From positions 64,001 through 128,000 of IMG/VR virus record IMGVR_UViG_3300042691_015370: a stretch of DNA of 64,000 nt; one strand, given 5' to 3'. The DNA is from a virus. Below the pieces are notes generated by a model. It searched no databases. It was not told the DNA's origin and saw nothing but the letters and a program-made list of their open reading frames with translations. Every line of letters begins with the position of its first letter. Positions within the stretch are counted from its first letter, which is position 1. Position numbers and translations under genes: made by a program. Below are positions 8,301 through 24,997 of the stretch, piece after piece.

Positions 8301-10757
8301 GGCATCACCATAGGCAAAGACCTGACCACACTCATCAACTACCCAAAAGCCCTTTTTCTTTGGATGTGATTCAATGGCCGTACCCTTGCCGCCCACATAG
8401 TAATCTTTAGTATAACCATAGGAAACTCGGCCATAATGAAGATACTTAGTTTGGATACCCCTAAAAGCAGTAGCTGTAGGGTCATTGGGTCGTGGAGGAA
8501 TGTGTGACGGTAGTCCCTTAGGGTTATCAATCGCATCACCAAACGCAAAGACTGAGCCATTACTAAAAAGAATCCAGTAGCCATTACCGGTATTAGTAGC
8601 AGCAATACCATTACACGTCACTCTTGGGGCAGTGTCCCAAGCGGTGTTTATATTGCCATTATATTTCCAGTTTGGATCAATAGCATGCAAAACACCCTTA
8701 CCGTCATAGAATTCTTGTGCGCCACCCCGATAGATTTCGAGCCATTTGATACGCCAATCATAGTAACGCTGAGGACTGTTGACTACATAATCTGTTTGCC
8801 CATTGTAGCCTGTGTGAAGCTCAGCGTCACCATAAGCCTTGACATTGCCCATCCAGTCCACAATCCAAAAACCCTTACCAGATGGTGTTACGGCCATATC
8901 GTGAGCACGGTTCTGGGTCAGAGAATACACCTTGCCGCCAGCCAGTACCGTGTGACCCGTCTCACCCGGAGAACCGTCCAATGTGGTACCAGAAATGGTT
9001 GGTGTACCAGCCATGTAGGGATCAGTTCTGTGGTTGTAGAAGTGACCATATGGGGCTGGCAAAGCTCTGTAAGAAGCCTGAATGTACCTGCGCTCTGACT
9101 GAATGTCATCTAACGGGTCATAGCCCGGTGAATCAGAATCGAAGTCGGCAGCGTCACCAAAACCATGAATAGTGCCACCGTTTTCAAGCACCCAGTAACC
9201 ACGAGTTGGGTGAGGCTGAATACTCCATGTCCAAGTTACGTCATTAGCCAGTGCCTCATAGGGAGTCTTGTTCTGACCCAGACAATAAACCTGTACGGTC
9301 TTAAATCCTGCACGATACTGATCACCGGCAGAGTTTGGCATACCGGAGTAGTAGAAACGCTGAATGGAGACGCGAATCTTATCGACGTTGTTGAACTGAA
9401 CAAGTTCGCCCTCTTGTACTTGGATTTCTTTTCCATACAGTCTCTGATGTAAACGACGATCTGCCGGGTCTTCGCTGCCAGCGAGGACACCGGAATAGAA
9501 ACTTTCCTGCTCGCTAACCATTCGACGCAGTTCAATGTTGACGGCCTGTTCACCACGCTGAGAATCACCGCCCGGTGTAGTCTCTGGAATATAGGCTTCA
9601 GACACATAAGGAATGTCCTTACCTTGGCCCAAGGGTGCCAACACACTCTTGTTCTCTGTGATAGTGCCATTCACAAGGGTGCCCTCTGCCCACTCGCCAT
9701 CCACCATCACGGACACAAATATCTTGTAACCACCAGCCCATGCCGTCAGAGCAATAGAGCTAACGTTTTGTTCATGACCAGCAGGTATCTCCAACTCAAA
9801 CCAAGCAGTATCAGTTTCTAGGGGACCATCAATGCGACGTGGGAATGCTTCAGTAAGGTAGAAGTCTTGAATGTCACCATCAATAGCAGCAGCCAAAGCG
9901 TGCTCGCCGCCGATAAAAGGGTCACCAGCGATACCGTCAGCACTGGTGTTGCCGGGATTAACCTGTACGGGACCACGAGAACCGGGCGCTGAGGATGGGA
10001 CACTGCGGGCACGGGGACCCCAAAGAGAGTCGAAACGAGACTTGCCCGGTGGTACATACTCAAGGGGATACAGAGCGCTGGGAATGGTAGGAGGAAAGAC
10101 GATCTGATCAAGCAGCAGACGCCCAACGTCACGGCAGTTCAATGTCATAAGACCTTGACTTGTACCAATCACCGAATCAACTAGCCAAGCACCAGTCATT
10201 ACGACGTTGGATGTGGCTAAGTTATGATCAATCGACAAGAAGTTTCCGGGCTTAGGTCGCCCACCGTAACCCTGATATGTAAATAGTAACGCATCTTCTA
10301 CGAGGACGTTTCTCCACGAAAAATCATTGTCCCAAGTGCCATCTTTACGGTACGCACCCATGCTAGGACTCTGATTCCATGAAGGACCAGAGTCTCCGTC
10401 CCCCCGCTTGGGCCAGAAATATCCGGGCTTACCAAGCTGACCAGCAAGCTCTGGCTGTGCAGTATTGATTTCATGCCAAGCGTTATAGATCGTGATCTGG
10501 CAAGTAGCAATGTCTTGAGAGAGGCTGCGAGTAATCTGAATAGACTGAATGGACGGAATCTCATGCTCCACAGCCTCAGGATCTCTGTAATAGCGGTAGG
10601 AGCCTCGTACAGAGTTGCCATAGACCGGGCTGGTACTACGTAGCGTCCAGTCAGCCTGAACCGTTACACGCCCATTGGGAGCGCCCTCGTCGCCAATCAG
10701 TAAACCGCTCTGGATACGATCAAATATCTTGCGCTGAAGTGCTGCTGTCCATCTCAT
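5394..10757 (-). CDS. Large tail tip/hub protein with beta-propeller, CBM5/12-like and lectin-like C-terminal domains
   Basis: Start at ATG 10757 (ATGA overlap); hub-like segments (DVIRELAEVVGYVVYVDQEGGLRF; NPCLDVDDQVRL); six GYW..GxV.AFGDA repeats; WDAEKEGGYGTGARVSYNGVTY...PGTGPEW carbohydrate-binding motif. Confidence 0.75.
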   Translation of the reverse strand: MRWTAALQRKIFDRIQSGLLIGDEGAPNGRVTVQADWTLRSTSPVYGNSVRGSYRYYRDPEAVEHEIPSIQSIQITRSLSQDIATCQITIYNAWHEINTAQPELAGQLGKPGYFWPKRGDGDSGPSWNQSPSMGAYRKDGTWDNDFSWRNVLVEDALLFTYQGYGGRPKPGNFLSIDHNLATSNVVMTGAWLVDSVIGTSQGLMTLNCRDVGRLLLDQIVFPPTIPSALYPLEYVPPGKSRFDSLWGPRARSVPSSAPGSRGPVQVNPGNTSADGIAGDPFIGGEHALAAAIDGDIQDFYLTEAFPRRIDGPLETDTAWFELEIPAGHEQNVSSIALTAWAGGYKIFVSVMVDGEWAEGTLVNGTITENKSVLAPLGQGKDIPYVSEAYIPETTPGGDSQRGEQAVNIELRRMVSEQESFYSGVLAGSEDPADRRLHQRLYGKEIQVQEGELVQFNNVDKIRVSIQRFYYSGMPNSAGDQYRAGFKTVQVYCLGQNKTPYEALANDVTWTWSIQPHPTRGYWVLENGGTIHGFGDAADFDSDSPGYDPLDDIQSERRYIQASYRALPAPYGHFYNHRTDPYMAGTPTISGTTLDGSPGETGHTVLAGGKVYSLTQNRAHDMAVTPSGKGFWIVDWMGNVKAYGDAELHTGYNGQTDYVVNSPQRYYDWRIKWLEIYRGGAQEFYDGKGVLHAIDPNWKYNGNINTAWDTAPRVTCNGIAATNTGNGYWILFSNGSVFAFGDAIDNPKGLPSHIPPRPNDPTATAFRGIQTKYLHYGRVSYGYTKDYYVGGKGTAIESHPKKKGFWVVDECGQVFAYGDAVHHGELKNRIYNEGADSSFTLKLFDYAVDITSTDTGDGYWILFNSGLVAAFGDAVSKGPLELDSINKQFENNVAVGGSRLDPELDYYKRLFYSMARDQDGRGYWVLRADGEVYFHEATDWGNPGWNGLTGYRWHEGNFDGDYAQIVKELAMWAGFTFFEEIKDQSSIQVTAPEGYTVDEYGNYDPTSNTAGTLEQYEQINMLGGIETTAIKQDIEIQGDKWDKKYIIDVIRELAEVVGYVVYVDQEGGLRFRSPNWWRSGNFDYNGWRIWTYEEDGEVFRIPEQWVEDTGAQPFIPEIHEEVDLMSYSATINNTDKRWQILIGTETPDPQDISRTGHVQHFPPFANEEVRPGVPSSRHIPRTSIWTSHVFENADERKLMAEVIGIHNYFAGRTGTVTATANPCLDVDDQVRLIERSTSETFIHRIQGITTRMNLDDGTYIMDLQTHWLGSADNWVLVTTAEGEPWDAEKEGGYGTGARVSYNGVTYISTIADNATTPGTGPEWVEQNSVENPYVVISDQLDSWQRETDRGLELSGYAAKNPYDLQVTGTFTSGIVGMSDNGAKWGVWVDDPEVVVSNDETTFPCVNYKSFGRGLKWPFTSATPLEYEDDGETYNAAVLRHSGQDFFLTLGYTPDHLQGFTSRVLVVEDRLGVNSEFATQDVDIASDLDPAGGVTIIPSPFEEVVIGPGTGTGTASSFHAWWHKDPPIRYEEVSVTLEVVEQPTVDDLYYWAMQLDFTDASNVVLSGGHCGLQWIDGYPDYNAVNWGGYISDEGQTEFGPGLPSQLVGSTSSLPSAASNDNTRNYAWNEATEYRFRVFKVANQGGEPANTTRWRCTITNLTTNVTTTIRDLYAYGDRIHGVAVWSEIFAGCNDPTATVRWSDFEAIEYGSGDSITIDEFYIWYQVDGCENTNTYSDGSGGIGQRTNTTRTTPHDSYLNLGPAPPPPMISEGTGPGPTVWNDFLNLPDPY

Positions 10758-11155
10758 CCTAGATCCTCGGTATTGCTCCAATCGACCACGATCCCGCTAA
10801 TGCTGAACTCGTGTCGCCATGGATACTCAACGGTTCTAACTCTGCGGGGATCAAATGATGTGAACACAACCCAATACGATCTACCGAGATCGTCAGTCAC
10901 CTTGATCTGCTTATCCGTCTGAGTCCACGCACGTAGCGCATTGTATTGATCTTCGGTCAACAATGTTCCAGAAAGTGTCATGCTCTGCTCACGGTTACGG
11001 CCCTGAAACAGCACGGGACGGCCCCGAGTGATCGGCGTCGGTGTCAAGGTCTTTTCAATAGAGGGCATTGTAGTATCTTTGGGGTTGATCTCTAACTCAT
11101 AAGAGAGAGAGGCGTGAACATCCTCAAACAGCCACGGTGTACGTTCTGATGGCAT
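10754..11155 (-). CDS. Distal-tail (Dit)-like protein, paralog 2
   Basis: Position after TMP; shares NP...TDDLGR.[YW].V...SF..RR..T...HE pattern with 11155..11586. Confidence 0.6.
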   Translation of the reverse strand: MPSERTPWLFEDVHASLSYELEINPKDTTMPSIEKTLTPTPITRGRPVLFQGRNREQSMTLSGTLLTEDQYNALRAWTQTDKQIKVTDDLGRSYWVVFTSFDPRRVRTVEYPWRHEFSISGIVVDWSNTEDLG

Positions 11156-11596: not shown

Positions 11597-14500
11597 TCAG
11601 TAGTGAGGCTCGTAAGAGCCTCTAGTGCCCGGAACGCCCATGAACTGGATCATCACGTCCATGAACTGCTGGAAGTCCATGCCGCTATTGATCGTCACGC
11701 CACCCATGTTCAACTGACGCCCATCAGTATAACCCATCGCCTGACCGCCAGCATTATAGGAAGTCTGCTGGTTCATGCGGCGAATCTCGTACACTGTTGG
11801 GAGGCCCAAAGTTGATGGCATGTTGATCGACAGATCAGAACTCATATCATCCTTGAGGCGCTTCAGTTCAAGCTCAAGTTCCTTGAACTTCTTGGAGCCG
11901 GGGATGACGGTAGACTGTAGGTTCTTGATGTGAGCCATGTACGTAGACTTGGAAATCTCGTTCATCTCTAGCATGTACTTGTACTCATCGTAACGGTCAG
12001 TATAGACAGCATCCTGTGCGGCCTTGTCTGCGCTAATAGCAGCGGCACGAAGCCTATTGATCTCAGCCTCACCCATACCCTGATCAATACCGTACTGAAG
12101 CTGAGCCTGAGCCTGCTGGCGAGCTACCTGAGCAGCACCAACCTCGTCTTCAATCGCAAGAAGTTCAGCTTGACGCAACTCCATAGCAGACGTGCGAATG
12201 TTTTGCATAGCATCAGCAGCCGTTCGCTGAGCATCAGCGAGTCTTGTTTCAAGATCGATAATTGCATCAATGTCATTAGCCTTCTTAGCATCTGCTAGAA
12301 GCTGATTGAGCATCTTGATGTTGTTATCAGACTGCTGCATTGGATCGCGAGTCCGAGCATTTAGCAGACCGAACAGTGCCTCTACACGAGCACGGTAAGC
12401 TTGGCGCTCTGCCTTAATGGCATTGTTGTAGGCTTCCTCAGCAGCCATGATCTCATCAATATCGCCACCCTTTCTTGCATCAGCAAGAATCTGAGCAGCA
12501 GCCTGAGTATCCATGTTTGCGTTGGCGAGATTGTCATTAGTTCTGGACTTCTTAAGCCCAAATAGTGCTCTCACCCTAGCCGCATACGCAGCCCTCTGTG
12601 CTTTTTCTGCTTCAAGTAGGGCTGTCCAAGCATCAGCATACTGAGCACTATCTTTGCCAAAGATTCTCTCCATGTCAGCAAGTGAATTTTGAGCAACAGC
12701 AACGTCGATGTTAGCACCTTGCAGCGAATCCTTAGCCAAAGCTTTAAATAGCCTACCAAGAGACTGCATTTGAGCATTGAGAGCAAGCTCAAATGCTCTC
12801 TGTAGTTCTAGTTTCTGTTCAAGAGCAGCGTTCAGTGCCGCTTCATCACCCTTACCTGATGCTACATCAATATCAAATTGATTGTTCAGCAGAGCACCGT
12901 AGGCTCGCTTGACGTCATTACCACCAGCCCAACGAGCAATATTGAGACTATTTCTAGATCTATTGACAGCAATACCTTGTTCAAACTCAGCTTTCTGAGC
13001 TTCACCAACCGCAACGTTAGCCTCATCCCATTCTGCTGTACCCGGAGCGTAACGATCTCTTGCAGCAATGGCCGCTAGAACGTTATTGCGAGCAATCTCC
13101 ATTGGGTTAAATGTACGTGAATTGGCAAGTCTAAATCTTCTAGTTGCCGAAGCTGTAATAGCGTCCATGTACTGACTCTGGGCAGCCCAATAAGCCTGCT
13201 CAGCTTCGTCTACATCGGCCTGAGTGGCTTCGCCCGCCGCAAAAGACTCTTTGGCCTTCTGCCATTCAATTGCAGCGGCCTCCCAGTTCGTTCTCGCCGC
13301 TCCCAGCGTATCGCCAGTAGCGGCCTGCTTCGCTCCCTGAGCACCTGCACGGGCAGCACGGGTACGTCGCTCTTGCTGTCTGCGGGCATTTCTGGTTTCG
13401 ATCTCGCTTTCTTCAACGTCAAAATTAGCATCTTCAAGATCATCAGCGTACTGCTGTTGAGCTTCCTCAGACCAATCTTCGCCGCCCCTTGCTTGAGCAC
13501 GATCTCTATCTCTAATGATTCTGTCACGCTTGTCGCGAGCAGCATTCTCTTCAGCCACAGCGGCCGCAACGGGGTCGTTGCTGCGCATAGCGTTGATTCT
13601 TGAACGCCTATACTCCCTATTATCCTCACGCTCTTCACCAGCCAAGATAAATGCATCTTCTTGACGCTTGAGATTTCTCTCAACCTCTTCTGGGCTAGGC
13701 AGATCCGGTGGTGGAGCTACGCCAGCAGGGAGCTTCACGTCCCCTGCCATGCCAACAAATTCTAACAAAGCATACAGGAACTGTAGATGCTCTTCCAGCT
13801 TCTTAATATCCTCTTCAGAAGCTTCTGGATCAGCCTTTAGTTCAGCTAGTTTATCCTTTGTGACGGCAAAACTGGACTTCAAGTCTCTTGTATTAGATGC
13901 ACTCAAAGTATTGTCGTCTAGATAGTCTCTGACAATAGACTCAGTAAATGCTTCACCACTTAGAGCAGACCTTGGAATCAGACCCTCACCAAATACTGAA
14001 TCTTCACCAGTTGGTGGCGTGTATCCAAAGTCCTTAACTAGCTGTGCAGTTGTTGCATTTCTACCGGGCTGAGCGGTACCCTGATCATCCTCAGCTATCC
14101 ACAATTCCTTATCAGCATCATAAGTGTAATTTACATTCGCCCCAAGAGCATCTTTTCTTGAGAACGTATCTCCGTCAGCGGGTCCAGCTTCATTGGAACC
14201 AGACCGTGCGCGAATAGCATCATAGGCTTCGATACCAGCGGCAAAAGCTTCCGAAGCCTTAAAACTATCTGTAATAACTGCATTGTTTGCAGCACGCAGT
14301 CCCTCATCTTGACGCATTCTTTCAATGACAGATGCATCATCTGTAGTATTGGCAAACAAGCTTGCATAAAAAGCCTTCTTAGCGTCAACTACCTGTGCCG
14401 CTACTTCTAGCCTTTGATCACGATCATCAAAAGACGCATTGTTAAGCAAGTCTACATAAGCGCTCAATTGAGCAGCCTGAATCCCAGCCTCAGAGGCACC

Positions 14501-17500
14501 AAATATCTCCATCATCTGGAGAGATCTATCAACCTCGCCCCTGAGAGCCTGAGAAATCTGTTGCTCAGCCTGACGCTTAGCCTGAGCGTATGCTTGAAGA
14601 TCTTCTTCTGAAGGTGCCGTGTCACCGCCATACATCGACTGGCGCATCGTTCTCAATGCTTCAGTGGACTCTTCGATCAGCCCTTTAGTGCCCGTTCTAC
14701 CAGCGCTAAATCGACTAGAAGCCTCTGTAATATCAAAGTTAAGGCGCTCGGCCCTCGTCATATCCTCTAGCTTGGCTTCACGCATCTTGCGTTGAGTTTC
14801 AGGATCATCAAGCGAAACCTGAGCAGCCTTTTCCAAACCAGCCCGAATGCGTGCAACCTGATCCTCGTTAAGATTGCCTTCGGCCTGCATACGTTCAAGC
14901 TCAGCTTGTGGATCATCGGCGGTAATAACCTCAACAACTTCAGCAGACATATTGTCTGGATTCTGATATCCTAATGCTTCAGCGTAGGCAGCCTTAAGTG
15001 CAGCCTCATTATCAGAAAGACGTTCTGTTCTTAATCTTCCACTTGAACCACCAACAATACCATTATCATCAAAAATTTGATTTAGTAATGATTGCTCATT
15101 TTTAGCCCTACGTCGAAGTGACAAACGAGCTTCGTCAATATTTTCGCGCTGCATTTCTTGAAGTGCAGGGGATTGCCGTCCAAAAGCTTCACGAATCTGT
15201 CTAGGAGTAGCGTCTCTGCCGGGTCGAGTGCCTCGACTTCCACCACCAGCAATCGCTGCACCACCAGCAACCCCACGATCGTTAAAACCGCCACTCAATG
15301 CAGCAGTCATTCCAAACGTCTGGAAATAAACCTCTCTTGCAATTTCTGGATTGGCTCGCAAATCGTCTAGTGCAGTGGCCCGTTCAATCGGGATCTCTGC
15401 AAGCACGGCCTGACCACGCAAAATACTCGCTTCAGACTCACGGTTAAATATGGGTCGCCACCAGCGGTCCCAGCCACCACGATCCGACTCAGCGGTTCTT
15501 GCTTGGGATCTTAATTCGGCCGCACGCTTTGACAGTGCCGACTCTGACCCATCTATACCAAGAGCGGCAAGCTTACGTGCCCCTTCATTACCTTCCTTGG
15601 AAGTTTCATAAAGCTCACGCAATGCGGCAGTATCTTGATCTAGCATGCTGTTTACGGCGCTATAAGCTGCCGTAAGAGCCATAATCGCAATAAATGGATT
15701 AGATACCAGACTACCTACAGCGCCAGCAAGGGCCGCTGCTCCACCGCCACCAATCTTCGTAGCAGCCGTACCTACACCCGCTCTCAAACCAGCCTGAATC
15801 TTGCCAGTACCAGAATCTGGCAAGATAGGACCGGCTAGTCTGACCCCACCACGACCAATCGGTGCCCCGGAACGATAATTTTCGTATCTGGCGGCGAATC
15901 CACCAGCGCGATCGTACATTCCTCTCTGAATATTCGACCTATACTGAGCAAAGGAGTCAGGTGCCCAGACATTGCCAGCCATGCGACGTTGCTCGGATGT
16001 TCCAGAATAAAGTACTTGAGACTTGCCATTTTCGTCTACAGCATATCTTGCCCCAGTTGGAGTAACAGCATAGTAGCCACCCTTACCATCAGGCATAGGT
16101 TTAGCAACTGCGTCTGATCCATCTGGATACTTTGTAGGATCTAATACAGTAGCCTTGCCAACAGGTGAATAGAAGCCACCAACGCCCTGTGTCATGGCTC
16201 CTGTGTAAATAGCGTTAGTTCTGGTCATCACCTCCCCACCGTGCTGGATAGCCATACGCAGAAGCTTCCAAGCGGCTACGGCACCAAGAATCTTAGCTGG
16301 TGTGCCGCCCAGAATCTCATTGATGAAAGTAAACAACTTAGCAACAGGAGAGATAACGGTTGCCAAAAGTTTAAGGCTATCAATTAGAACCTTAAACATA
16401 TCCTCTAGACCAGCGTCCAGAGCATAAACCATAATAGTACGGAATTGCTCACCAAGAATTCTCATCTGCGTGGTAAGCGTTTCCTTCTGTCGTTCAAATC
16501 TCTTTTCTAGCGCTCCCTCACTATCTGAGGCACGGGCCTCAAACCTTTCCGTGTTCTGTGGCTTAGCAAATGCTCCAATAACCACACCAGCTTCACGACG
16601 GCCACCAAGCAGTTGATATAGCTGCTCTTCAGATTCCTTACTGATATTTGGCAGGGCTTGAGGCAGTGCCTTAAAGACATCTGCTGTAGTTCCTTCACGC
16701 AATGCATCAATAAAATCTGGACCAAAGCCCGGATCTTTATACGCAAGCTGGAGAAGAGCGTCCTTATTGCCGGGAACAGATGGCAAAACTCGACCCAACT
16801 GCTCAGCAAGAGCGCCACCGGTACGACCAGATGTCTGAGCAATGGTTGCACCAATGGCAATAATTTCATCTGACGTAAACCCAGACTGCTTAGCGATAGG
16901 AGCAATACTTGACAAGAACTCAACCTGAGAAGCTACGTCAACACCAGACTCTGAAGCTACTGCCGTAAGCTTGTTGCCAATAAGCTCATTGCTCTCTCCG
17001 AAAGAGAGGCCAATCGCAATAGCCTGATCACTCAGAGTCTTGGTCGGCAAGTCTGCGACAACCGCAAGCTTCGCTGCGGCTTCTCGCTGCTCCTTAACCA
17101 ACTCTTCGCCCGAAATCGACCTATCACCAGCACCCTTAATCGTTTCTCCCAAAAATGCGCCTCTAATAGAGATCTCCATTTTTGCGATCTCATCAGCGCC
17201 GACACCAGTTTCCTTCGAAAGATCAACGATAGCCTGTTTAATGCCATCAATCTTGCCCTTAGCGTCTTCACCAAATGTTTGCGCTAGCTGCGAGTCAAGG
17301 CGTGCTAGCGCAAACTTGAGTTCTTCAGCTTCCTTGAGAGCGCCAACAAGACCAGCCCCAACACCAAACAAAAGCATAGAGGGCAAAGCATACTTCATAC
17401 TTTGAATTGCGCCCTCACCAAACCAACCGCCCAAGCTGTCATCGCCTCGCACAGCTTGGCGGAACGCCGTAAACCGACTTGGCTTACCATTATTGCCATA

Positions 17501-20500
17501 AAAACGACCGCCACCGCCGTACCCACCATAGCCGCCATAGCCGCCACCGCCGCCGTATCCACCACCCATTCCGCCACCAGCAGCAGTGACAGGATCTGAC
17601 AAACGACCAGTTCTTCTAAACTCTTCATCAAGAATTTCTTGATCAGAAAGGTTAAAGCTCTTCTTTAATCTTTCGTACTGAGCGGCAGCTTGAGCTTGTT
17701 GTTGAGCAACATCTTCTGGGCTACCAGCACCGGGACTGAACGCCTGACCCAGAGCGCCGTATGCTCTTGTAGCTGCCTTCGCTCTTCTCTCTTGCCACCT
17801 AGCAGCACCCTCGTCTGCACTCAGTTCACCTGAAACGACGTCATCCCAAATGTCGGCACTCTTGCCCTCTGGGAACAGTCCTCTGCGAGCAGCAGCTTTT
17901 TGTCTTGGGGTTAAGGCTTCCCAATTACCATCACTCAAGTTACGCGCAGCCTGACGCTGGTCAGCAGCGAACTTGGCCTTACGGGCAGCAGCGTCAGACT
18001 CGGCTTTACGATCAGCATCTGCCGTTTCATTTTCGGCCCGAGCACGACGACGTTGCTCTGCTTTCTCCTGTCGCCGTTTTTCGTTCGCTTCGGCAGCCGC
18101 AGCAATAGCGGCTAGACGATCAGCTTCAGTGGCAGGACCGACAAAAGGAGTGCCACCACCATCAATAACATTAGTACCTGCACCCAGTGCTCTGCGCTCT
18201 GCGAGTCTAGCTCTTCTTGCTTCAATATATGGGTCTACTGGAGGTAGAGCAAGAGGCTGTCGTGGCCCATAAAGCGGAATTGGCACACCAGTACCCGGAA
18301 TGTCGGTACCAATCATTAACTCTCTAGCAGAGAAGCGGCGCTGTTCAGGGGTAACTCCCGGCCCCAAGGCAAGAGGTGTTGCAGATCTACCGAGTGCCTC
18401 AGCAGCGGTTGCAGCAGCATCAGTGCCCACAGCAACTGCATGCATCTCAAGAGCCGCCGTGTCCGCAAGGAGAGCTAGCCTCAGTTCTGATGCAGTAGCT
18501 GTAAGGGAATCTAATTCACTGACAAGAACGGCTCCAGAGACTCCCGTGGCAGTAGTACGAGATCTTGCTACTTCATTAGCTCTTGTGAAAATAGCGATCT
18601 GTTCTGGTGTGGCTTCTCCCGAAGCAACTAGGGGTCGCAATTCAGCAAAGTACTCACTTGGAGATAGCTTTGACTGACTCGTTGGGAACAGTGCGTCGGG
18701 ACCACTTAGTCTGTCACCTCTACCAACAATAATCCCCTGATCTTCAAGGATCTGGCGATAAGCTGGATCTAGACCCAGCATATTCTCCATACGATGCTGA
18801 GCTTCGTGCAGGGCTGTAGCCGGTCCAGCGCCGAGAGTTGCTGCACCAGCAGCACCAACCTCACGACTCGTGCCTCCACTAGCTACCCAATCGTCAACAC
18901 CAGCAATCATCTCTGAGTTCATTACCCAGCGACCATCACCCGTCATTGCCCCTAGACGGCCACGGAACTCATCGCTTAGTTCTGAAACAACCTCGGTTCT
19001 TAGATCACCCAGCAGGTTAGGTGCCCCTGCTTGCATAGAACGCATGTATGCTTCAATACCAGATGCGCTACCCAAAATGTCAGGACGACGAGGGGTGCTA
19101 TAAGCGTCAGAACCGGGACCAAGCTCTGGCGGGCGCTTGCCTTCTTGACTTCTGCGAAGTTCTTCCTCTACCTGCTGACTAATTACCTCTGCACTTGGCA
19201 TAAGGCTAACTTGTCTTGGGCTTGGCCCATAAATGGTGCGGTAACCATCATTTCCATAGTAATGAGACAACTTACTGGTGCCCGTCAGGCCCCAGTTTTG
19301 AGACACCGCCTCTGTGTCGTAAAGCGATCCGTAGCTTCCAGACTTAGCATCTAGCCATTCATTATAGGCTCTAATCATCCTTTGTCGAGTACGAAGCGAG
19401 TGATCATATATGTTGTCACGGAACCCTTCAATCCACTGTACATCACCCTCGTCCTCAAGCTGCATTTGAACGAAGTTGATAGCATCAGAAGATTGGGTTT
19501 TACGGTATCTATTGGGACGACTGAATGCTGTCTCACCAGAACCAAGCTCGCCCCTGAAAGGTGGTGGGAAGAGTTCGCTATATGAGAAGGCTCCCCTGAA
19601 GGGTGGTGGCTGTGTTCTGTAGCTTGGCAGTGGCGGAGGAATAGGTCCAGTGTAAGGTGGTAGTCCCCAACCGGGGCCTGAGTATTCGGGACGAGTAACT
19701 CCGGGCAGAGAACCAGTATAAGGAGGCGGTGTTAAAGCTTGCTTATTAGCATCCCATTGAGCTTCAAAGATCTTGTACTGAGCCTCGTCGTCGGTCAAAA
19801 TGCCACGACGAATCATGCGCTCAATACTTGCGGCCGCTGTTACACTAGAATCACGAAGCCGCTCCAAAGACTCTCGCAAATTGGCAGGTACCTCAAGCCG
19901 ACCAGCAGCTAGCCTCTGCTTTTCTGTCCATTCGCTACTATCATCAACGTCGGAACCAGCAAACAGCTTGTTCCACATGATGTCTTTGACACGCTTCTGT
20001 TGAGCAATCTGCTCGGCAGTGCCACGACCAACATCGTAACCAATAACCTCTGCACTAGGTACAGGGCTAAAACGAGATACCCGTCTTGGAGAAGGACCAA
20101 TAACGTTACCATATAGATCATAAGAAAGACCTATAGTACTACCGCCTAGCCCTTCACGAGCCAATCTTTCTTGAATTGCTCCTTGTCGCTGACGGCTTCT
20201 AGGGAAAGCTTCTGCAATTTCTGCACCCGGCTTATTCTCTGTTAGCATGAAGGGCAATGCAGCGTCTTCTATAGCCTGCATGGCAAGGAAGTTCATGTAG
20301 TCAGAAGACTGCGGCCTATTCGGAGTGCTGAAGATAGTGCGGCCCGTGCCTAGAGCAAGCTGCTCACGCACGAAGGAGTCAGTATCAAGACCATACAGCC
20401 AGTCTTTAAGCTCCCTGTTACGAGGACTCTTGCTCAAAACTTGTCCGAAGATATCACCCTCATTGCGAGAAACAACATCACGAACATTCCGAGCAGCCAA

Positions 20501-23500
20501 GCTTGGACTACCGCCTCTACCCAATTCTGAGTAAAGATCAATGAGAGTAAATCCAGCCCTAGGATCGTACATAAAGTTACTAGCTGAACCAGTGTCTGGA
20601 CTAAGGCCCCGCATTCCAACCGCAATCAGAGATTGCAGCATGGCTCGTACCTGAACGATCTCAGGCACAATACCCTTACCCTGCCCAAGAGCCATACCGG
20701 GCGCTAGGCGAGTAATCGGGTGACCGAGCTTATCGACAGCAGCAAGTTGCTCAACACCCGGAATGCCGATTACTTGCTGTAACCCTCTAGTACGCTCTAG
20801 TAGTCGAGCATCTGCAACTTCTGGGAACTCTCCAGTACCCTCATACAGCATCTCATAAATTGAGGGGTTCTCTGGCAGCGGCTCACGCCAAACATAAGAA
20901 GATTTGCCTGCTTTGAATCCATAGGCAGCAGCCTGTGACCCAATACCAATGGGTGAACCAAGAATCTTGCCACGATAAGCGAGAGCCAACTCTTTATCAA
21001 GAGCGGCGCGTTCTTTCGATCTGGCTAGCTGCGCAGCAAGACGTGACTGAGAGGGATCACTGTATTGAGTTGAGGCACCGGGCAGTGCAAGACGTTCAGC
21101 AACACTGCGAGAAATAAGGGGAGTCGCAAGAGCTTGAGCTTCAACCAAAAGAGCCTGAGCTTCAGGACCATCAAGTCTACGCAGTCGTTGAGCGAGGTCC
21201 AAAGAGGCTTGCGGCACTCCCCTTATTTCTCTAACAGATTGGGCAGCATTTTCTACATTACCAAGAGCTTTTTCGACCAAACCGCGCTTACTGTATTGAC
21301 GAGGCAACATATCAAGCTGATAGTCAATAGATGTAAATCCTCTATCGCCCGTAGTGTCGTAGAGAACATTCTTCCAATGACCGTCGCCATGGATACCCCG
21401 CAAACCCAAAGCCGCTTGAGTCCTGAAAAGCGCAAGAATCTCATCCTTAGTGGGGATGTTTCCGAAATACGTTCCCTCGTTTTGTCTATCAACTATTTGC
21501 TTAATAGTTTGGCCGGGGGCACGACGAGTAATTGGCCTACCATCACTAACGGCAACCAACTGCTCCGCACCCGGAATTCCAATAGCCGCCTTAAGACTAT
21601 CTAGTCTAGAATAGATGTTTGGATTTAGCCTTCTGATATCTCTTCTTGCAACATACTCTTGCGAACCCGCAGCAAAACCATAGGCGGAACTGTTCATACC
21701 AGTACCCAACGCCTCTTGGGTTAAGTTTCCACCTCTCAATATTTCATTTAGTGCCAAGCGATCAGACGAACGTTGCAGTTGTGTTATGAGACGAGCATTA
21801 GAAGGAGTACTGTAAGCGTCACGCGGCATGCCAATAGCGAGGCGCTCATCTCTGGCCCAACGTTTTTCAAGATTGAGTTCACGAGAACCCATTGCCATAG
21901 CTTGCTTATGAAGCTTATTGAAGTCCAGTGCCATACCACCAAACTGTTGGCGTAGCGGCTCATACGCTTGAGTGAACCAAGCACGGGTAAAATCATTGGA
22001 CATCTGCGGGAAGGCAAGCTCAGTGGCTGCGACTTCGGCCGTCAATTCATATGGAGTTGCTCTAGAGTAGTTGCTTGGTACAAATCCTGTACCACCAACA
22101 AGACTTCTTCTAGACTGATCTTCAAACGGTGCGCCGGTCCATCTACCGCCAATGTCCGCAATTAACTGTTTACGGTTTTGTGGCACGGGCAGGAAATGTC
22201 CAGCCTCATGAGCAAACAAGGTGCCAAACAAACCTCTACCAACAAGTGCGTTTTCATTATTAACACTCTTGGGCTGTAAACCGCCGAAAAGACGACTACG
22301 AACACCCATAAATCTAGGAGCAAACCCAGACTCACCGAGCATCCTGCCATACTGCCTTTCCCAAGGACTATTAGCATCGGAAGCTACCCTAACGCCCAAG
22401 GCACCGAACTTTGCTACACCAGAACCAAAGCGGCTATCATAGTCAGCCATCATGGAAGCCAAAACAGGCATTGGAGCATTGGCAAATGGCCGTCTTAGCT
22501 GCGTAAGGTCAGTGCCCTTCTTGAGGATATCGGTATTAAAAGTACCATTGAATACGCTATTAAGCGCATCAAGACTTGTTTGGTTAATACTTCGAGATAC
22601 ACGCGTTCTACGGGGACCGACATCATCAAACGATGGGAAGGGCTGGATAGGGGCGAACCGGCTCGTTTGAGAAAAGGCTTGAGGGTACAAGAACTTAGCG
22701 GCAGAAACCGCTTCACGCTCACTGCTAAAGTTTGGAATAATCTTCGCAGCTTCACCGAGTGGATTAAAATTACCTGCACTAGAGAGCATTGCATCAACAA
22801 GTGCTGGCGCATTTCTAAGAGACTTAGCCCTAGCACGAGATGCCATAAACTGCGTCGGTCCATGCCATTGCTCAATAGATGGATCAACAAGAGCTTCTAG
22901 TTTGGGTAGAATCTCTCGGTACTCACGAGTCCGCTGTAGCTGTTGCTCAAGACGTTGCGAGATTGTGCCCGATCGTGGCGTCGAATAAGCGGTCTGCCCC
23001 GCACCAAGCGCTGGGATGCCAAGGTCAGCCAAAGGATCATTTGAACGAGCTTGAAGAGCTAGACGAGCACCCTTGCTAATAAGTCCAGCGTCACCAAGCT
23101 TGGTAATGTCAGCTTCCCAGATACGGCCAGAGTAGAACTTATCACCAGAGAGTCTACCGTCTAGCAATCTACCGGGCTGCACCATACGTGCAACACCGGC
23201 GTTTGCAAATCTCTCCCATAGCGCATTAGCCTGCAATGACACAACATTATCAGACCTTGCCGTAGTAACGCCAAGCCCTGACATCAGCCTTAGCATACTA
23301 TCAATGTACATCCCAGAGCCAAGACCACGACCCCGAGCGCTCGCATCAAGTGAACTTAATGCAACACTAGCAGTTGATGGTTGCCGTACATTTGGAACAT
23401 TCCAGTCAATAAAGCCACGGGCAGAATCACCGGGCTGTCCAAAGTTGTAGTTAAAGGATAGTGGAACGGTAGAATTCTGTAGCGGTGAACTATAAGCATT

Positions 23501-24997
23501 TCTGCCGGGAGTCAATTGACGGGACTGTCGTGCAACGTTCTGTAGAGCATTCTCCTGCTGCCAACGATTGAAAGCAATGTCGGCAGGAGTTATAACCTGA
23601 CCAGAGCCAGTTGTTACTACCTGTGGTCCACCGATACGTTCACCAAACGTTCTTTGAGACAGTGAAGTGGAGGGAACATACTGAGGCAAAGCAAATGTCT
23701 GCCGATACGGCAAAGCCCCAGCTTGAGATGCTGGGGCTAGCGAAGCAGAACCGGTTGGTAGACCAGAAACCGCTGCCGCCTTGCGCTCCAGAGCATCGAT
23801 CAGACCCTGCTCTGCTGCGGCGAAACGACCGTAGCTACCAGTCAGAACAGAGGTTTGTCGATCTAGGGCACGGGACTTGCTCTGAAGGGCACGAATCAGT
23901 ACCTGTTCCTCAAGAGCAAGTTGACTGCCAGTATTTCCATAACCCGGCTTTGCTGGCTCAGTGGCGGGGGCTGTCGGAACCGCCCTAAGTACAGGCTGGA
24001 CAGGAATAGCAATAGCAAGCTGAGCAGACTGACGCTCTTCTCTGCGACGATCTACGAGCGCCTGAGGTGCCACTGGAGCGGGGATCGCCACCATGGCGGG
24101 TTGCTGCACAGAGGTCGCAATAGGACGTGGCAGAGCGGGCTGTGAAGCCTGTACTGATGGGGTGGGAAGTTGACGTGGCCCGCCGACAGCAACGGCCAGA
24201 ACCTGATTATAGGCACGAGCAACTCTATCCCTCGTACTCTGGGCAGCAAACCTGTTGGCCGCAACAATCTCTTTCTGAGAACGAATGACCTGATTCTGGA
24301 ATGCATTGGTCTGCTCCAGCAGAGCCGTGTACTGACGTGCCTGTGCAGTCTGTCCACGGAGAATGCTTTCAAGATCCTTGTTGTACCGATCAGTGATAGC
24401 TGAACTGGTCAGTACCGGAGCGGCAGCGGCGACGTTTCTCGTCACCGACGAAGTTGTAGACGCTATGGCAATAAGGCTGGCTTCTCTGTCGAGCCGCTGA
24501 TTGAAGACCTTGGAGATATCCTCAATACGAATGTTGTCCAGTACGGCAAAAAGTTGCTGTGACTTCTGAGTGAAAGCTGAAGAGAAGACTCGTTCAATTT
24601 CTGCCTGTTGCTGTGGGGCAAAGAAGTTGAAGCCACGAATCTGTTGTTTCAGCTTGTCAAAGTAGAGATCACCGAACCTGTTCAGATCCTGAATCTGGCG
24701 ACCGATGACACGAGATGATGCAGCAAGCTGAGCCTGCATAAGCGCAGCAACACGGCCCTGTGCGGCCATGAGTTCACGCATCTCACCTCGTGAGGTGGCA
24801 ATCGCAGATGTCGCAATAGTATTAGGTGATCCTAGTGCTGCAAGAGTTGTGGGGGGAGCGAGTTCCCCGGCAACACCACCAGCACCCCCTAGGGCACCGG
24901 CCTCAAGCGCACGCAACGAGTTGGCAGTCTCACGAACGCCTCTCTGAATGCCAGAGGTATCAAGATCTACACTAATAAGCCAGCGATCTTCTGCCAT
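11597..24997 (-). CDS. Giant tape measure protein (4466 aa) carrying an N-proximal array of enzyme-like effector modules
   Basis: Follows the frameshifted tail chaperones; TMP-type N-terminus (LISVDLDTSGIQRGVRE); TMP core near 17400-16200 (IKQAIVDLSKETGVGADEIAK); helical repeats at the C-terminus; GNAT, HExxH and kinase motifs in 23480-18380. Confidence 0.9.
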   Translation of the reverse strand: MAEDRWLISVDLDTSGIQRGVRETANSLRALEAGALGGAGGVAGELAPPTTLAALGSPNTIATSAIATSRGEMRELMAAQGRVAALMQAQLAASSRVIGRQIQDLNRFGDLYFDKLKQQIRGFNFFAPQQQAEIERVFSSAFTQKSQQLFAVLDNIRIEDISKVFNQRLDREASLIAIASTTSSVTRNVAAAAPVLTSSAITDRYNKDLESILRGQTAQARQYTALLEQTNAFQNQVIRSQKEIVAANRFAAQSTRDRVARAYNQVLAVAVGGPRQLPTPSVQASQPALPRPIATSVQQPAMVAIPAPVAPQALVDRRREERQSAQLAIAIPVQPVLRAVPTAPATEPAKPGYGNTGSQLALEEQVLIRALQSKSRALDRQTSVLTGSYGRFAAAEQGLIDALERKAAAVSGLPTGSASLAPASQAGALPYRQTFALPQYVPSTSLSQRTFGERIGGPQVVTTGSGQVITPADIAFNRWQQENALQNVARQSRQLTPGRNAYSSPLQNSTVPLSFNYNFGQPGDSARGFIDWNVPNVRQPSTASVALSSLDASARGRGLGSGMYIDSMLRLMSGLGVTTARSDNVVSLQANALWERFANAGVARMVQPGRLLDGRLSGDKFYSGRIWEADITKLGDAGLISKGARLALQARSNDPLADLGIPALGAGQTAYSTPRSGTISQRLEQQLQRTREYREILPKLEALVDPSIEQWHGPTQFMASRARAKSLRNAPALVDAMLSSAGNFNPLGEAAKIIPNFSSEREAVSAAKFLYPQAFSQTSRFAPIQPFPSFDDVGPRRTRVSRSINQTSLDALNSVFNGTFNTDILKKGTDLTQLRRPFANAPMPVLASMMADYDSRFGSGVAKFGALGVRVASDANSPWERQYGRMLGESGFAPRFMGVRSRLFGGLQPKSVNNENALVGRGLFGTLFAHEAGHFLPVPQNRKQLIADIGGRWTGAPFEDQSRRSLVGGTGFVPSNYSRATPYELTAEVAATELAFPQMSNDFTRAWFTQAYEPLRQQFGGMALDFNKLHKQAMAMGSRELNLEKRWARDERLAIGMPRDAYSTPSNARLITQLQRSSDRLALNEILRGGNLTQEALGTGMNSSAYGFAAGSQEYVARRDIRRLNPNIYSRLDSLKAAIGIPGAEQLVAVSDGRPITRRAPGQTIKQIVDRQNEGTYFGNIPTKDEILALFRTQAALGLRGIHGDGHWKNVLYDTTGDRGFTSIDYQLDMLPRQYSKRGLVEKALGNVENAAQSVREIRGVPQASLDLAQRLRRLDGPEAQALLVEAQALATPLISRSVAERLALPGASTQYSDPSQSRLAAQLARSKERAALDKELALAYRGKILGSPIGIGSQAAAYGFKAGKSSYVWREPLPENPSIYEMLYEGTGEFPEVADARLLERTRGLQQVIGIPGVEQLAAVDKLGHPITRLAPGMALGQGKGIVPEIVQVRAMLQSLIAVGMRGLSPDTGSASNFMYDPRAGFTLIDLYSELGRGGSPSLAARNVRDVVSRNEGDIFGQVLSKSPRNRELKDWLYGLDTDSFVREQLALGTGRTIFSTPNRPQSSDYMNFLAMQAIEDAALPFMLTENKPGAEIAEAFPRSRQRQGAIQERLAREGLGGSTIGLSYDLYGNVIGPSPRRVSRFSPVPSAEVIGYDVGRGTAEQIAQQKRVKDIMWNKLFAGSDVDDSSEWTEKQRLAAGRLEVPANLRESLERLRDSSVTAAASIERMIRRGILTDDEAQYKIFEAQWDANKQALTPPPYTGSLPGVTRPEYSGPGWGLPPYTGPIPPPLPSYRTQPPPFRGAFSYSELFPPPFRGELGSGETAFSRPNRYRKTQSSDAINFVQMQLEDEGDVQWIEGFRDNIYDHSLRTRQRMIRAYNEWLDAKSGSYGSLYDTEAVSQNWGLTGTSKLSHYYGNDGYRTIYGPSPRQVSLMPSAEVISQQVEEELRRSQEGKRPPELGPGSDAYSTPRRPDILGSASGIEAYMRSMQAGAPNLLGDLRTEVVSELSDEFRGRLGAMTGDGRWVMNSEMIAGVDDWVASGGTSREVGAAGAATLGAGPATALHEAQHRMENMLGLDPAYRQILEDQGIIVGRGDRLSGPDALFPTSQSKLSPSEYFAELRPLVASGEATPEQIAIFTRANEVARSRTTATGVSGAVLVSELDSLTATASELRLALLADTAALEMHAVAVGTDAAATAAEALGRSATPLALGPGVTPEQRRFSARELMIGTDIPGTGVPIPLYGPRQPLALPPVDPYIEARRARLAERRALGAGTNVIDGGGTPFVGPATEADRLAAIAAAAEANEKRRQEKAEQRRRARAENETADADRKAESDAAARKAKFAADQRQAARNLSDGNWEALTPRQKAAARRGLFPEGKSADIWDDVVSGELSADEGAARWQERRAKAATRAYGALGQAFSPGAGSPEDVAQQQAQAAAQYERLKKSFNLSDQEILDEEFRRTGRLSDPVTAAGGGMGGGYGGGGGYGGYGGYGGGGRFYGNNGKPSRFTAFRQAVRGDDSLGGWFGEGAIQSMKYALPSMLLFGVGAGLVGALKEAEELKFALARLDSQLAQTFGEDAKGKIDGIKQAIVDLSKETGVGADEIAKMEISIRGAFLGETIKGAGDRSISGEELVKEQREAAAKLAVVADLPTKTLSDQAIAIGLSFGESNELIGNKLTAVASESGVDVASQVEFLSSIAPIAKQSGFTSDEIIAIGATIAQTSGRTGGALAEQLGRVLPSVPGNKDALLQLAYKDPGFGPDFIDALREGTTADVFKALPQALPNISKESEEQLYQLLGGRREAGVVIGAFAKPQNTERFEARASDSEGALEKRFERQKETLTTQMRILGEQFRTIMVYALDAGLEDMFKVLIDSLKLLATVISPVAKLFTFINEILGGTPAKILGAVAAWKLLRMAIQHGGEVMTRTNAIYTGAMTQGVGGFYSPVGKATVLDPTKYPDGSDAVAKPMPDGKGGYYAVTPTGARYAVDENGKSQVLYSGTSEQRRMAGNVWAPDSFAQYRSNIQRGMYDRAGGFAARYENYRSGAPIGRGGVRLAGPILPDSGTGKIQAGLRAGVGTAATKIGGGGAAALAGAVGSLVSNPFIAIMALTAAYSAVNSMLDQDTAALRELYETSKEGNEGARKLAALGIDGSESALSKRAAELRSQARTAESDRGGWDRWWRPIFNRESEASILRGQAVLAEIPIERATALDDLRANPEIAREVYFQTFGMTAALSGGFNDRGVAGGAAIAGGGSRGTRPGRDATPRQIREAFGRQSPALQEMQRENIDEARLSLRRRAKNEQSLLNQIFDDNGIVGGSSGRLRTERLSDNEAALKAAYAEALGYQNPDNMSAEVVEVITADDPQAELERMQAEGNLNEDQVARIRAGLEKAAQVSLDDPETQRKMREAKLEDMTRAERLNFDITEASSRFSAGRTGTKGLIEESTEALRTMRQSMYGGDTAPSEEDLQAYAQAKRQAEQQISQALRGEVDRSLQMMEIFGASEAGIQAAQLSAYVDLLNNASFDDRDQRLEVAAQVVDAKKAFYASLFANTTDDASVIERMRQDEGLRAANNAVITDSFKASEAFAAGIEAYDAIRARSGSNEAGPADGDTFSRKDALGANVNYTYDADKELWIAEDDQGTAQPGRNATTAQLVKDFGYTPPTGEDSVFGEGLIPRSALSGEAFTESIVRDYLDDNTLSASNTRDLKSSFAVTKDKLAELKADPEASEEDIKKLEEHLQFLYALLEFVGMAGDVKLPAGVAPPPDLPSPEEVERNLKRQEDAFILAGEEREDNREYRRSRINAMRSNDPVAAAVAEENAARDKRDRIIRDRDRAQARGGEDWSEEAQQQYADDLEDANFDVEESEIETRNARRQQERRTRAARAGAQGAKQAATGDTLGAARTNWEAAAIEWQKAKESFAAGEATQADVDEAEQAYWAAQSQYMDAITASATRRFRLANSRTFNPMEIARNNVLAAIAARDRYAPGTAEWDEANVAVGEAQKAEFEQGIAVNRSRNSLNIARWAGGNDVKRAYGALLNNQFDIDVASGKGDEAALNAALEQKLELQRAFELALNAQMQSLGRLFKALAKDSLQGANIDVAVAQNSLADMERIFGKDSAQYADAWTALLEAEKAQRAAYAARVRALFGLKKSRTNDNLANANMDTQAAAQILADARKGGDIDEIMAAEEAYNNAIKAERQAYRARVEALFGLLNARTRDPMQQSDNNIKMLNQLLADAKKANDIDAIIDLETRLADAQRTAADAMQNIRTSAMELRQAELLAIEDEVGAAQVARQQAQAQLQYGIDQGMGEAEINRLRAAAISADKAAQDAVYTDRYDEYKYMLEMNEISKSTYMAHIKNLQSTVIPGSKKFKELELELKRLKDDMSSDLSINMPSTLGLPTVYEIRRMNQQTSYNAGGQAMGYTDGRQLNMGGVTINSGMDFQQFMDVMIQFMGVPGTRGSYEPHY

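Follow-up and report, generated by a model that had tools for sequence, protein, structure and literature searches.

A repeated, lineage-specific motif marks module boundaries in a giant phage tape measure protein and may be read by an embedded zincin-like peptidase

MARTX toxins carry effector arrays that are released by an internal cysteine protease domain, which is activated by inositol hexakisphosphate (InsP6). In viral polyproteins, such as those processed by picornavirus 3C and potyvirus NIa, a short consensus is found at every domain boundary; its sequence varies among related viruses, in co-evolution with the encoded protease. In addition, the internal proteins of phage T4 have capsid-targeting sequences that are cut by the prohead protease gp21. 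Processing is also described for DdrB of phage P1 (PMC5512222). Iyer, Burroughs, Anand, de Souza and Aravind predicted in 2017 that polyvalent proteins are processed by zincin-like metallopeptidases (MPTases) (PMC5512222, section 8). The repertoire of these proteins includes MPTase, kinase (truncated or short), GNAT, ADP-ribosyltransferase (ART) and Pol-beta nucleotidyltransferase (NTase) domains; a junction or cleavage motif is not defined in that paper, and the phrases 'tape measure' and 'linker' are absent from it (PMC5512222). A tape-measure scaffold that carries an exchangeable functional domain through a tail-like tube is known from the modular effectors of contractile injection systems (CIS) that are related to tape measure proteins (TMPs), e.g., Sle1 (PMC13277306). 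In this study, a stretch of 64,000 nucleotides (the window), which comprises bases 64001-128000 of a 144,887-bp linear IMG/VR virus contig with an estimated completeness of 89%, is analysed. The main focus is on P0001, a giant protein identified by its sequence as a phage TMP, and on a short peptide motif that is repeated between the modules of its cargo.

A preliminary description of this DNA had reported seven copies of a conserved linker. All seven are present, on the minus strand and in frame within P0001, and are listed here as junctions J1 to J7 together with the gene.

11597-24997, minus strand: P0001, tape measure protein with an in-frame multi-module cassette, a single open reading frame (ORF) of 4466 amino acids (aa)
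23483-23515, minus strand: J1, LTPGRNAYSSP, aa 495-505
22976-23011, minus strand: J2, ALGAGQTAYSTP, aa 663-674
21803-21841, minus strand: J3, LAIGMPRDAYSTP, aa 1053-1065
21053-21091, minus strand: J4, LALPGASTQYSDP, aa 1303-1315
20321-20359, minus strand: J5, LALGTGRTIFSTP, aa 1547-1559
19514-19549, minus strand: J6, ELGSGETAFSRP, aa 1817-1828
19091-19126, minus strand: J7, ELGPGSDAYSTP, aa 1958-1969

The aromatic residue of J1-J7 is located at aa 502, 671, 1062, 1312, 1556, 1825 and 1966, respectively. The core pattern [YF]S[STDR]P is observed seven times in P0001 against 0.19 expected copies, and none of 2000 composition-preserving shuffles reached seven (maximum 4); the motif is far commoner than in shuffled sequence, a comparison that had been named beforehand as part of the refuting test. 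Beyond the core, the copies also share L or I at -7 and G or P at -6 and -4. All copies are confined to aa 495-1969 of P0001: there is no [YF]S[STDR]P copy in aa 2200-4466, and the motif recurs in none of the other stop-to-stop frames (80 aa or longer) of the entire contig. At positions where the copies have the same residue, the codon is shared in 29% of cases versus 30% expected from P0001 codon usage. The mean nucleotide identity between copies is 47% over 36 nt, and no family of direct DNA repeats covers them. Since the synonymous codons are randomised, selection acts on the motif peptide, and conservation at the protein rather than the DNA level, as first proposed, is confirmed. A DNA-repeat or gene-conversion origin of the motif is rejected in view of the codon statistics.

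Comparison of P0001 with itself divides aa 490-2200 into seven modules. This cargo of about 1,700 aa sits between the conserved N-terminal region (M0) and the tape core, and every cargo module from M1 to M7 begins with the motif.

23519-24997, minus strand: M0, conserved N-terminal region, coiled and Pro-rich, aa 1-493; 54% identical to P0002, a relative of P0001
23018-23482, minus strand: M1, unassigned module with a putative GNAT-like RGRGLGSG string, aa 506-660; no family match
21848-22975, minus strand: M2, zincin-like module 1, aa 675-1050; HEAGH at aa 930-934 (22196-22210), with a downstream E..AE
21098-21802, minus strand: M3, protein-kinase-like fold module, aa 1066-1300; from AlphaFold2 (AF2) and Foldseek
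20363-21052, minus strand: M4, paralogue of M3, aa 1316-1545; 34% identity, E 5e-27
19553-20320, minus strand: M5, unassigned module, ends in a Pro/Tyr-rich stretch, aa 1560-1815
19133-19513, minus strand: M6, paralogue of the N-terminal part of M5, aa 1829-1955; E 2e-9
18398-19090, minus strand: M7, zincin-like module 2, aa 1970-2200; HEAQH at aa 2064-2068 (18794-18808)

Apart from the paralogous pairs M3/M4 and M5/M6, the modules that are preceded by the motif are not homologous to one another and are unrelated save for the motif itself, with M2 and M7 both having HExxH. M3 was modelled with its flanks by AF2 on an eight-sequence alignment. The core of this model has a predicted local distance difference test (pLDDT) score of 70-85, and all its Foldseek matches are protein kinases, the best being Rio2 (E 8e-7), with the bacterial effector kinase NleH2 also listed. 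M3 and its paralogue M4 are therefore predicted, from the model, to be kinase-fold modules. Both junction segments of the model (aa 1040-1071 and 1305-1325) have a pLDDT below 50. The location of the motif at module boundaries, also part of the preliminary description, is thus borne out by two modelled junctions outside the folded M3 core and by the fact that the motif precedes non-homologous modules. ESM Atlas look-ups for M5 and M7 gave scores below 0.9 only.

A further sequence, PEYSGP (aa 1772), was considered as an extra copy and was rejected as a loose match inside a low-complexity stretch. This Pro/Tyr-rich stretch ends M5 (window 19547-19729, minus strand, aa 1757-1817) and contains PPYTG twice and PPPFRG twice. 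The kinase-like module is also found as a stand-alone protein, in P0008 (471 aa, L012:2009-3424) and in L013, near a Fic-domain gene and EamA transporters in cellular-looking contexts, and this family is not confined to phage tape measures.

Four giant relatives of P0001 were found by an exhaustive HMMER search and a word-based search: P0002 (4213 aa), P0003 (3639 aa), P0009 (called as 4696 aa) and P0010 (3087 aa). No relative was found in IMG/VR scans with three queries or in a first metagenome scan, and in word-based protein searches neither the cassette nor, among longer proteins, the kinase alignment gave a match. In P0002 and P0003, the similarity to P0001 covers the N-terminal region, the tape core and the C-terminus. 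P0009, as called, and P0010 match P0001 in the tape core and the C-terminus. The gene call of P0009 (L003:5407-20703, plus strand) is too short: the frame extends upstream, where a Met followed by AGADTWLIDVNLDTSG matches the family N-terminus, and the extended protein has about 5,090 aa. The module array between the conserved ends differs among the relatives, indicating that the cargo is an insertion and a variable region. For example, the M5 and M6 block is absent from P0002, and this break in synteny with P0001 is bounded by two junctions. Kinase-fold modules are found in P0001, P0002 and P0003. P0009 has GNAT, PolyA_pol and DUF7178 matches in Pfam, each between adjacent junctions, and P0002 has a weak GNAT match. 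At least two unrelated effector-type domains, as in polyvalent proteins, are thus present in this family: the kinase fold and the HExxH...E modules, and in P0009 the three Pfam domains. P0010 carries just one ART-like module. A YHGTS string occurs in a module of P0003 (aa 426-515) and in one of P0010 (aa about 500-640); weak similarity to Pfam Arr-ms (rifampin ADP-ribosyltransferase, E 0.025) is found for the former, and both modules are possibly ART-type cargo. Disorder propensity, on a simple scale, is raised at the junctions of P0001, P0002 and P0003 and not at those of P0009.

The P0001-type motif is not the repeated version in P0002, P0003 and P0009, each of which has its own. P0002 has L-P-x-P-E-V-Y-N-[RQ]-P (core pattern [PA]xVYN[RQ]P, four copies), P0003 has T-F-Q-[GA]-K (four copies) and P0009 has [FLMY]-[SA]-N-A-A-R (six copies), with a chance expectation of 0.001-0.05 copies for each relative's motif. 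The identity of the motif core is 0.56-0.90 within one protein versus 0.00-0.36 between proteins. The relatives' motifs occupy the same module starts, namely the end of the N-terminal region, the position before the kinase module and the position before the terminal zincin-like module. At the end of M0, the flank WQQENALQNVARQ is identical in P0001 and P0002 and is followed by GRNAYSSP in the former versus GPEVYNRP in the latter. In the same way, the kinase module is preceded by AYSTP or QYSDP, by VYNQP or by TFQGK, according to the protein. As judged from these sequences, the motif flavour tracks the protein that carries it and not the type of module that it precedes. The consensus co-varies with lineage, with four flavours in four proteins, which is a small sample. 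Lineage-specific flavours combined with randomised codons point to a reader whose evolution is coupled to that of every site in the same protein. Common to the flavours is a large hydrophobic residue, usually aromatic, that is followed by a small polar one. Autoproteolysis by an N-O acyl shift (as between F and S of Nup98) was considered and is rejected because of the +1 residue, which is Asn in P0002 and Gln in P0003.

It had been proposed that the motif is a cleavage signal by which individual effectors are released, as in a viral polyprotein. The part of this proposal that is well supported is that the motif is a functional protein-level signal marking module boundaries, as indicated by the non-homologous modules, the modelled junctions and the lineage-specific versions; cleavage itself is the most economical reading. 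A repeated consensus at domain boundaries in exposed segments, as expected of cleavage sites, is present, and we give about an even chance to the reading of the junction motifs as putative cleavage sites for an embedded zincin.

The mechanism would be as follows. A polyvalent-protein-like cargo cassette is inserted in frame into a TMP, between the conserved N-terminal region and the tape core. The N-terminal edge of each cargo module carries an exposed leader of about 12 residues, which consists of a hydrophobic residue, a G/P-rich spacer and A-[YF]-S-x-P, and which would most likely be read as a cleavage site by a zincin-type metallopeptidase of the same polypeptide, with M7 as the best candidate. 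Cutting would release individual enzymes of GNAT-like, zincin, kinase-like and other types from the giant precursor. Site and reader would co-evolve, and each related phage would therefore have its own motif version at all its junctions. Solely because it is part of a TMP, the cargo is presumed to be delivered into the host cell with the DNA, and cutting would likely take place after injection, because folded modules would hardly fit three-fold in the lumen of the tail tube. We infer the zincin as the reader, the cutting, the bond that is cut and the timing.

M7 is put forward as the candidate processing protease because of what is retained among the relatives. The terminal module before the tape is the only module that is kept in all four motif-bearing proteins (P0001, P0002, P0003 and P0009), and M7 is orthologous to the last module of the other three. 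This terminal zincin-like module has HExxH and E..AE, with LSGPDALFP in P0001 and P0009 and GGPAVFP in P0003. When five zincin-like modules from three proteins were aligned, the H, E and H and the distal E were invariant. In P0010 and in L005-L010, six relatives that are more distant, HExxH is missing upstream of the tape core, and none of these seven has a module array or a repeated junction motif.

A narrower form of this mechanism has a slim chance: the co-evolving zincin/junction pair would be active only after injection, with the aromatic residue directly following the cut, and every released effector would then start with Tyr, Phe or Leu and have a built-in short lifetime. Such cutting at the amino side is typical of zincins that have a hydrophobic S1' pocket, and Tyr, Phe and Leu are primary destabilising residues in the bacterial N-end rule (ClpS/ClpAP).

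Several points weigh against cleavage by an embedded zincin. The putative zincin-like assignment of M2 and M7 draws solely on the pattern of HExxH and a distal Glu. A zincin-like MPTase of polyvalent proteins has an HExxH helix, a Glu on the next helix and the zincin fold. The zincin-like modules have no match in Pfam, PHROG or NCBIfam and no sequence match in PDB, where a search with a zincin profile gave chance-level matches only, and the AF2 model of M7, built from a three-sequence alignment, has a pLDDT of 38. The motif-bearing sample consists of four proteins, all of which are metagenomic, and since the relatives that have no motif also have no modules, their contrast with the motif-bearing proteins is not independent evidence. 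In addition, homogenisation of the motif is incomplete: P0003 also has NAYSDP, and P0009 has PYASPRS before the terminal zincin-like module. One reader with one specificity is therefore too simple, and the sites may fall into two classes, perhaps matching the two zincins that P0003 and P0009 each carry. Finally, a conserved stretch of 12 residues exceeds what is usual for a simple protease site, and could also be a docking motif.

The rival that survives best is that the motif is an uncleaved docking or linker element, i.e., an exposed short linear motif that binds a common partner, which is possible, although clearly less probable than cleavage by the zincin. The partner could be a tail assembly chaperone, the lumen of the tail tube or a host factor, and binding might keep the modules unfolded, space them or order them as they move through the tail. 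Besides the long conserved stretch with its hydrophobic anchor at -7 and its G/P spacer, the position of the motif in low-confidence or disorder-prone segments suits such an element, and lineage-specific versions would suit any co-evolving reader and not a protease alone. It has also been described that N4 virion RNA polymerase (vRNAP), ArdC and TraC1 have MPTase domains yet transfer uncleaved (PMC5512222). On the other hand, no candidate partner has been identified and the remaining proteins of this phage lack the motif, while the sole element that is kept in every motif-bearing relative is a putative peptidase.

It is unlikely that the motif is a cleavage site for another protease, from the host or from the phage, rather than for the embedded zincins. 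Both the internal zincins and the prohead protease had been suggested as readers, and the exposed, repeated, module-boundary features of the site do not tell which protease reads it. Prohead proteases cut several head proteins at one consensus (T4 gp21, phiKZ gp175), whereas outside P0001 no ORF of the 145-kb contig (frames of at least 80 aa) has the motif, the head-gene region included. In long-tailed phages, tails assemble apart from heads, and this, together with the lack of any other phage protein with the motif, makes a prohead protease unlikely. Of the two suggestions, the internal zincin is favoured, as HExxH...E is kept in four of four motif-bearing proteins, and the prohead protease is disfavoured. 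As to a host protease, four flavours among close relatives are hard to square with conserved host proteases.

Phosphorylation by the embedded kinase-like modules, or glycosylation, has a lower probability still. This alternative, also raised at first, is attractive in that Ser at +1 is invariant in all seven P0001 copies, S-T-P resembles a proline-directed site, and P0001, P0002 and P0003 have kinase-fold modules. It is weakened by the lineage-specific versions: no hydroxyl position is kept across YSTP, YNRP, TFQGK and FSNAAR, the aromatic residue is Phe in two of the seven P0001 copies and in all four TFQGK copies of P0003, and position +1 is taken by Asn in P0002 and by Gln in P0003. P0009, moreover, has six motif copies without any kinase match. 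Strongly disfavoured, and the least probable of all, is the view of the motif as a neutral scar left when modules were inserted or duplicated, i.e., as a linker without a reader that moved with shuffled cassettes: modules are gained and lost between junctions and upstream residues such as ERLAL do move with the kinase module, but the motif residues are kept while their codons are randomised, the flavour follows the resident protein and not the type of cassette, and the motif is common to non-homologous modules.

The weaker half-copies that had been noted near the end of the cassette are present as well, as PLALGPG and as RALGAG (aa 2269-2274, 18176-18193), the latter within a longer element.

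18356-18376, minus strand: half-motif PLALGPG, aa 2208-2214
18176-18256, minus strand: half-motif element PLALPPVDPYIEARRARLAERRALGAG, aa 2248-2274, between the last zincin-like module and the tape

The PLALPPVDPYIEARRARLAERRALGAG element is common, with variations, to P0002, P0003 and P0010. Related versions of the form LALPxGxPY...AR.ARL.E are found in P0003 and, at two places, in P0002, and P0010, a protein that lacks a zincin, has LALP elements. This element does not show the lineage specificity of the junction motif, and it may be an ancestral form of the upstream half of the motif or a separate binding site.

The identification of P0001 as a TMP, made from sequence comparison and gene context, is supported by several observations. 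Pfam PhageMin_Tail is matched with 44.9 bits and E 1.5e-11 (Pfam cut-off 33.2 bits), and PHROG tape measure families are matched as well (phrog_28, E 1.4e-11). The protein is very long, largely helical and located among tail genes, and its N-terminus matches the N-termini of the orthologues. The minus strand carries nearly all genes, and terminase, tail fibre and spike genes are recognised by PHROG matches. The tail fibre and spike genes lie upstream of the P0001 gene, and L002-L004 have the same gene order. The tape core is the sole match in the protein: no Pfam, PHROG or NCBIfam model matched the first 2200 aa, PDB sequence searches with the P0001 modules gave chance-level matches only, and a tblastn search of cultured phages gave no match.

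16628-17236, minus strand: tape measure core, Pfam PF10145 PhageMin_Tail, aa 2588-2790
17507-17578, minus strand: Gly/Tyr-rich run GGGYGGGGGYGGYGGYGGGG, aa 2474-2497, directly preceding the tape core
5394-10781, minus strand: ORF of 1795 aa downstream of the P0001 gene, no Pfam or PHROG match

Gly-rich runs are also found at the equivalent position of the GGGYGGGGGYGGYGGYGGGG run in P0003, P0009 and P0010, and large ORFs (1220-1503 aa) likewise follow the tape measure gene in L003, L004 and the P0003 contig. The contig L010 (CAZUVD010000006.1, 149,277 bp), which encodes a related tape measure (40% identity in the core) and is similar in size to the phage studied here, is binned as an uncultured Coxiellaceae metagenome-assembled genome (MAG). 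Either a prophage or a phage genome that was binned wrongly could account for this contig, which may hint at the host group.

Zincin processing of polyvalent proteins has been predicted since 2017 without a defined site, and a lineage-specific junction motif makes this prediction testable. What is new are three orthologous giants with their own repeated motif at the same module starts, and a polyvalent array that is built into a tape measure. A TMP can carry a whole effector array, and the question arises of how a tail tube stores about 1,700 aa of enzymes and lets them pass. If cleavage holds true, matched protease/site pairs taken from separate lineages would be of practical use as orthogonal processing modules.

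Compared with known systems, the P0001 family is closest to the polyvalent proteins, with which it shares many unrelated effector-type domains per polypeptide and the same repertoire, including the Pol-beta/PolyA_pol NTase (PMC5512222). It differs from them in that its array sits inside a TMP, in that it has a repeated, lineage-specific junction motif and in that no module of the P0001 cassette reaches a Pfam model. Sle1 and TMPs with enzymatic domains are alike in using a tape-measure scaffold as the carrier of a functional domain. They have one such domain and no repeated junction motif, whereas P0001 has seven junctions and about 1,700 aa of cargo. The T4 internal proteins and P1 DdrB are injected phage proteins from which a phage protease removes a short N-terminal leader, as would be the case for P0001. 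However, they are separate, head-packaged gene products with a site that is shared with head proteins, whereas the P0001 motif is confined to one tail protein. The logic of the MARTX toxins is similar, with an effector array in one giant protein, an embedded protease and cutting of inter-domain linkers after delivery, the last of which is conjectural for P0001. MARTX toxins have a cysteine protease versus the putative zincin of P0001, are secreted toxins and not part of a phage tail, and show no sequence relation. Finally, viral polyproteins likewise have a short consensus that is repeated at boundaries and differs between relatives, as in the P0001 family; these are products of eukaryotic RNA viruses with chymotrypsin-like proteases, whereas P0001 would be cut by a zincin embedded in a phage tail protein.

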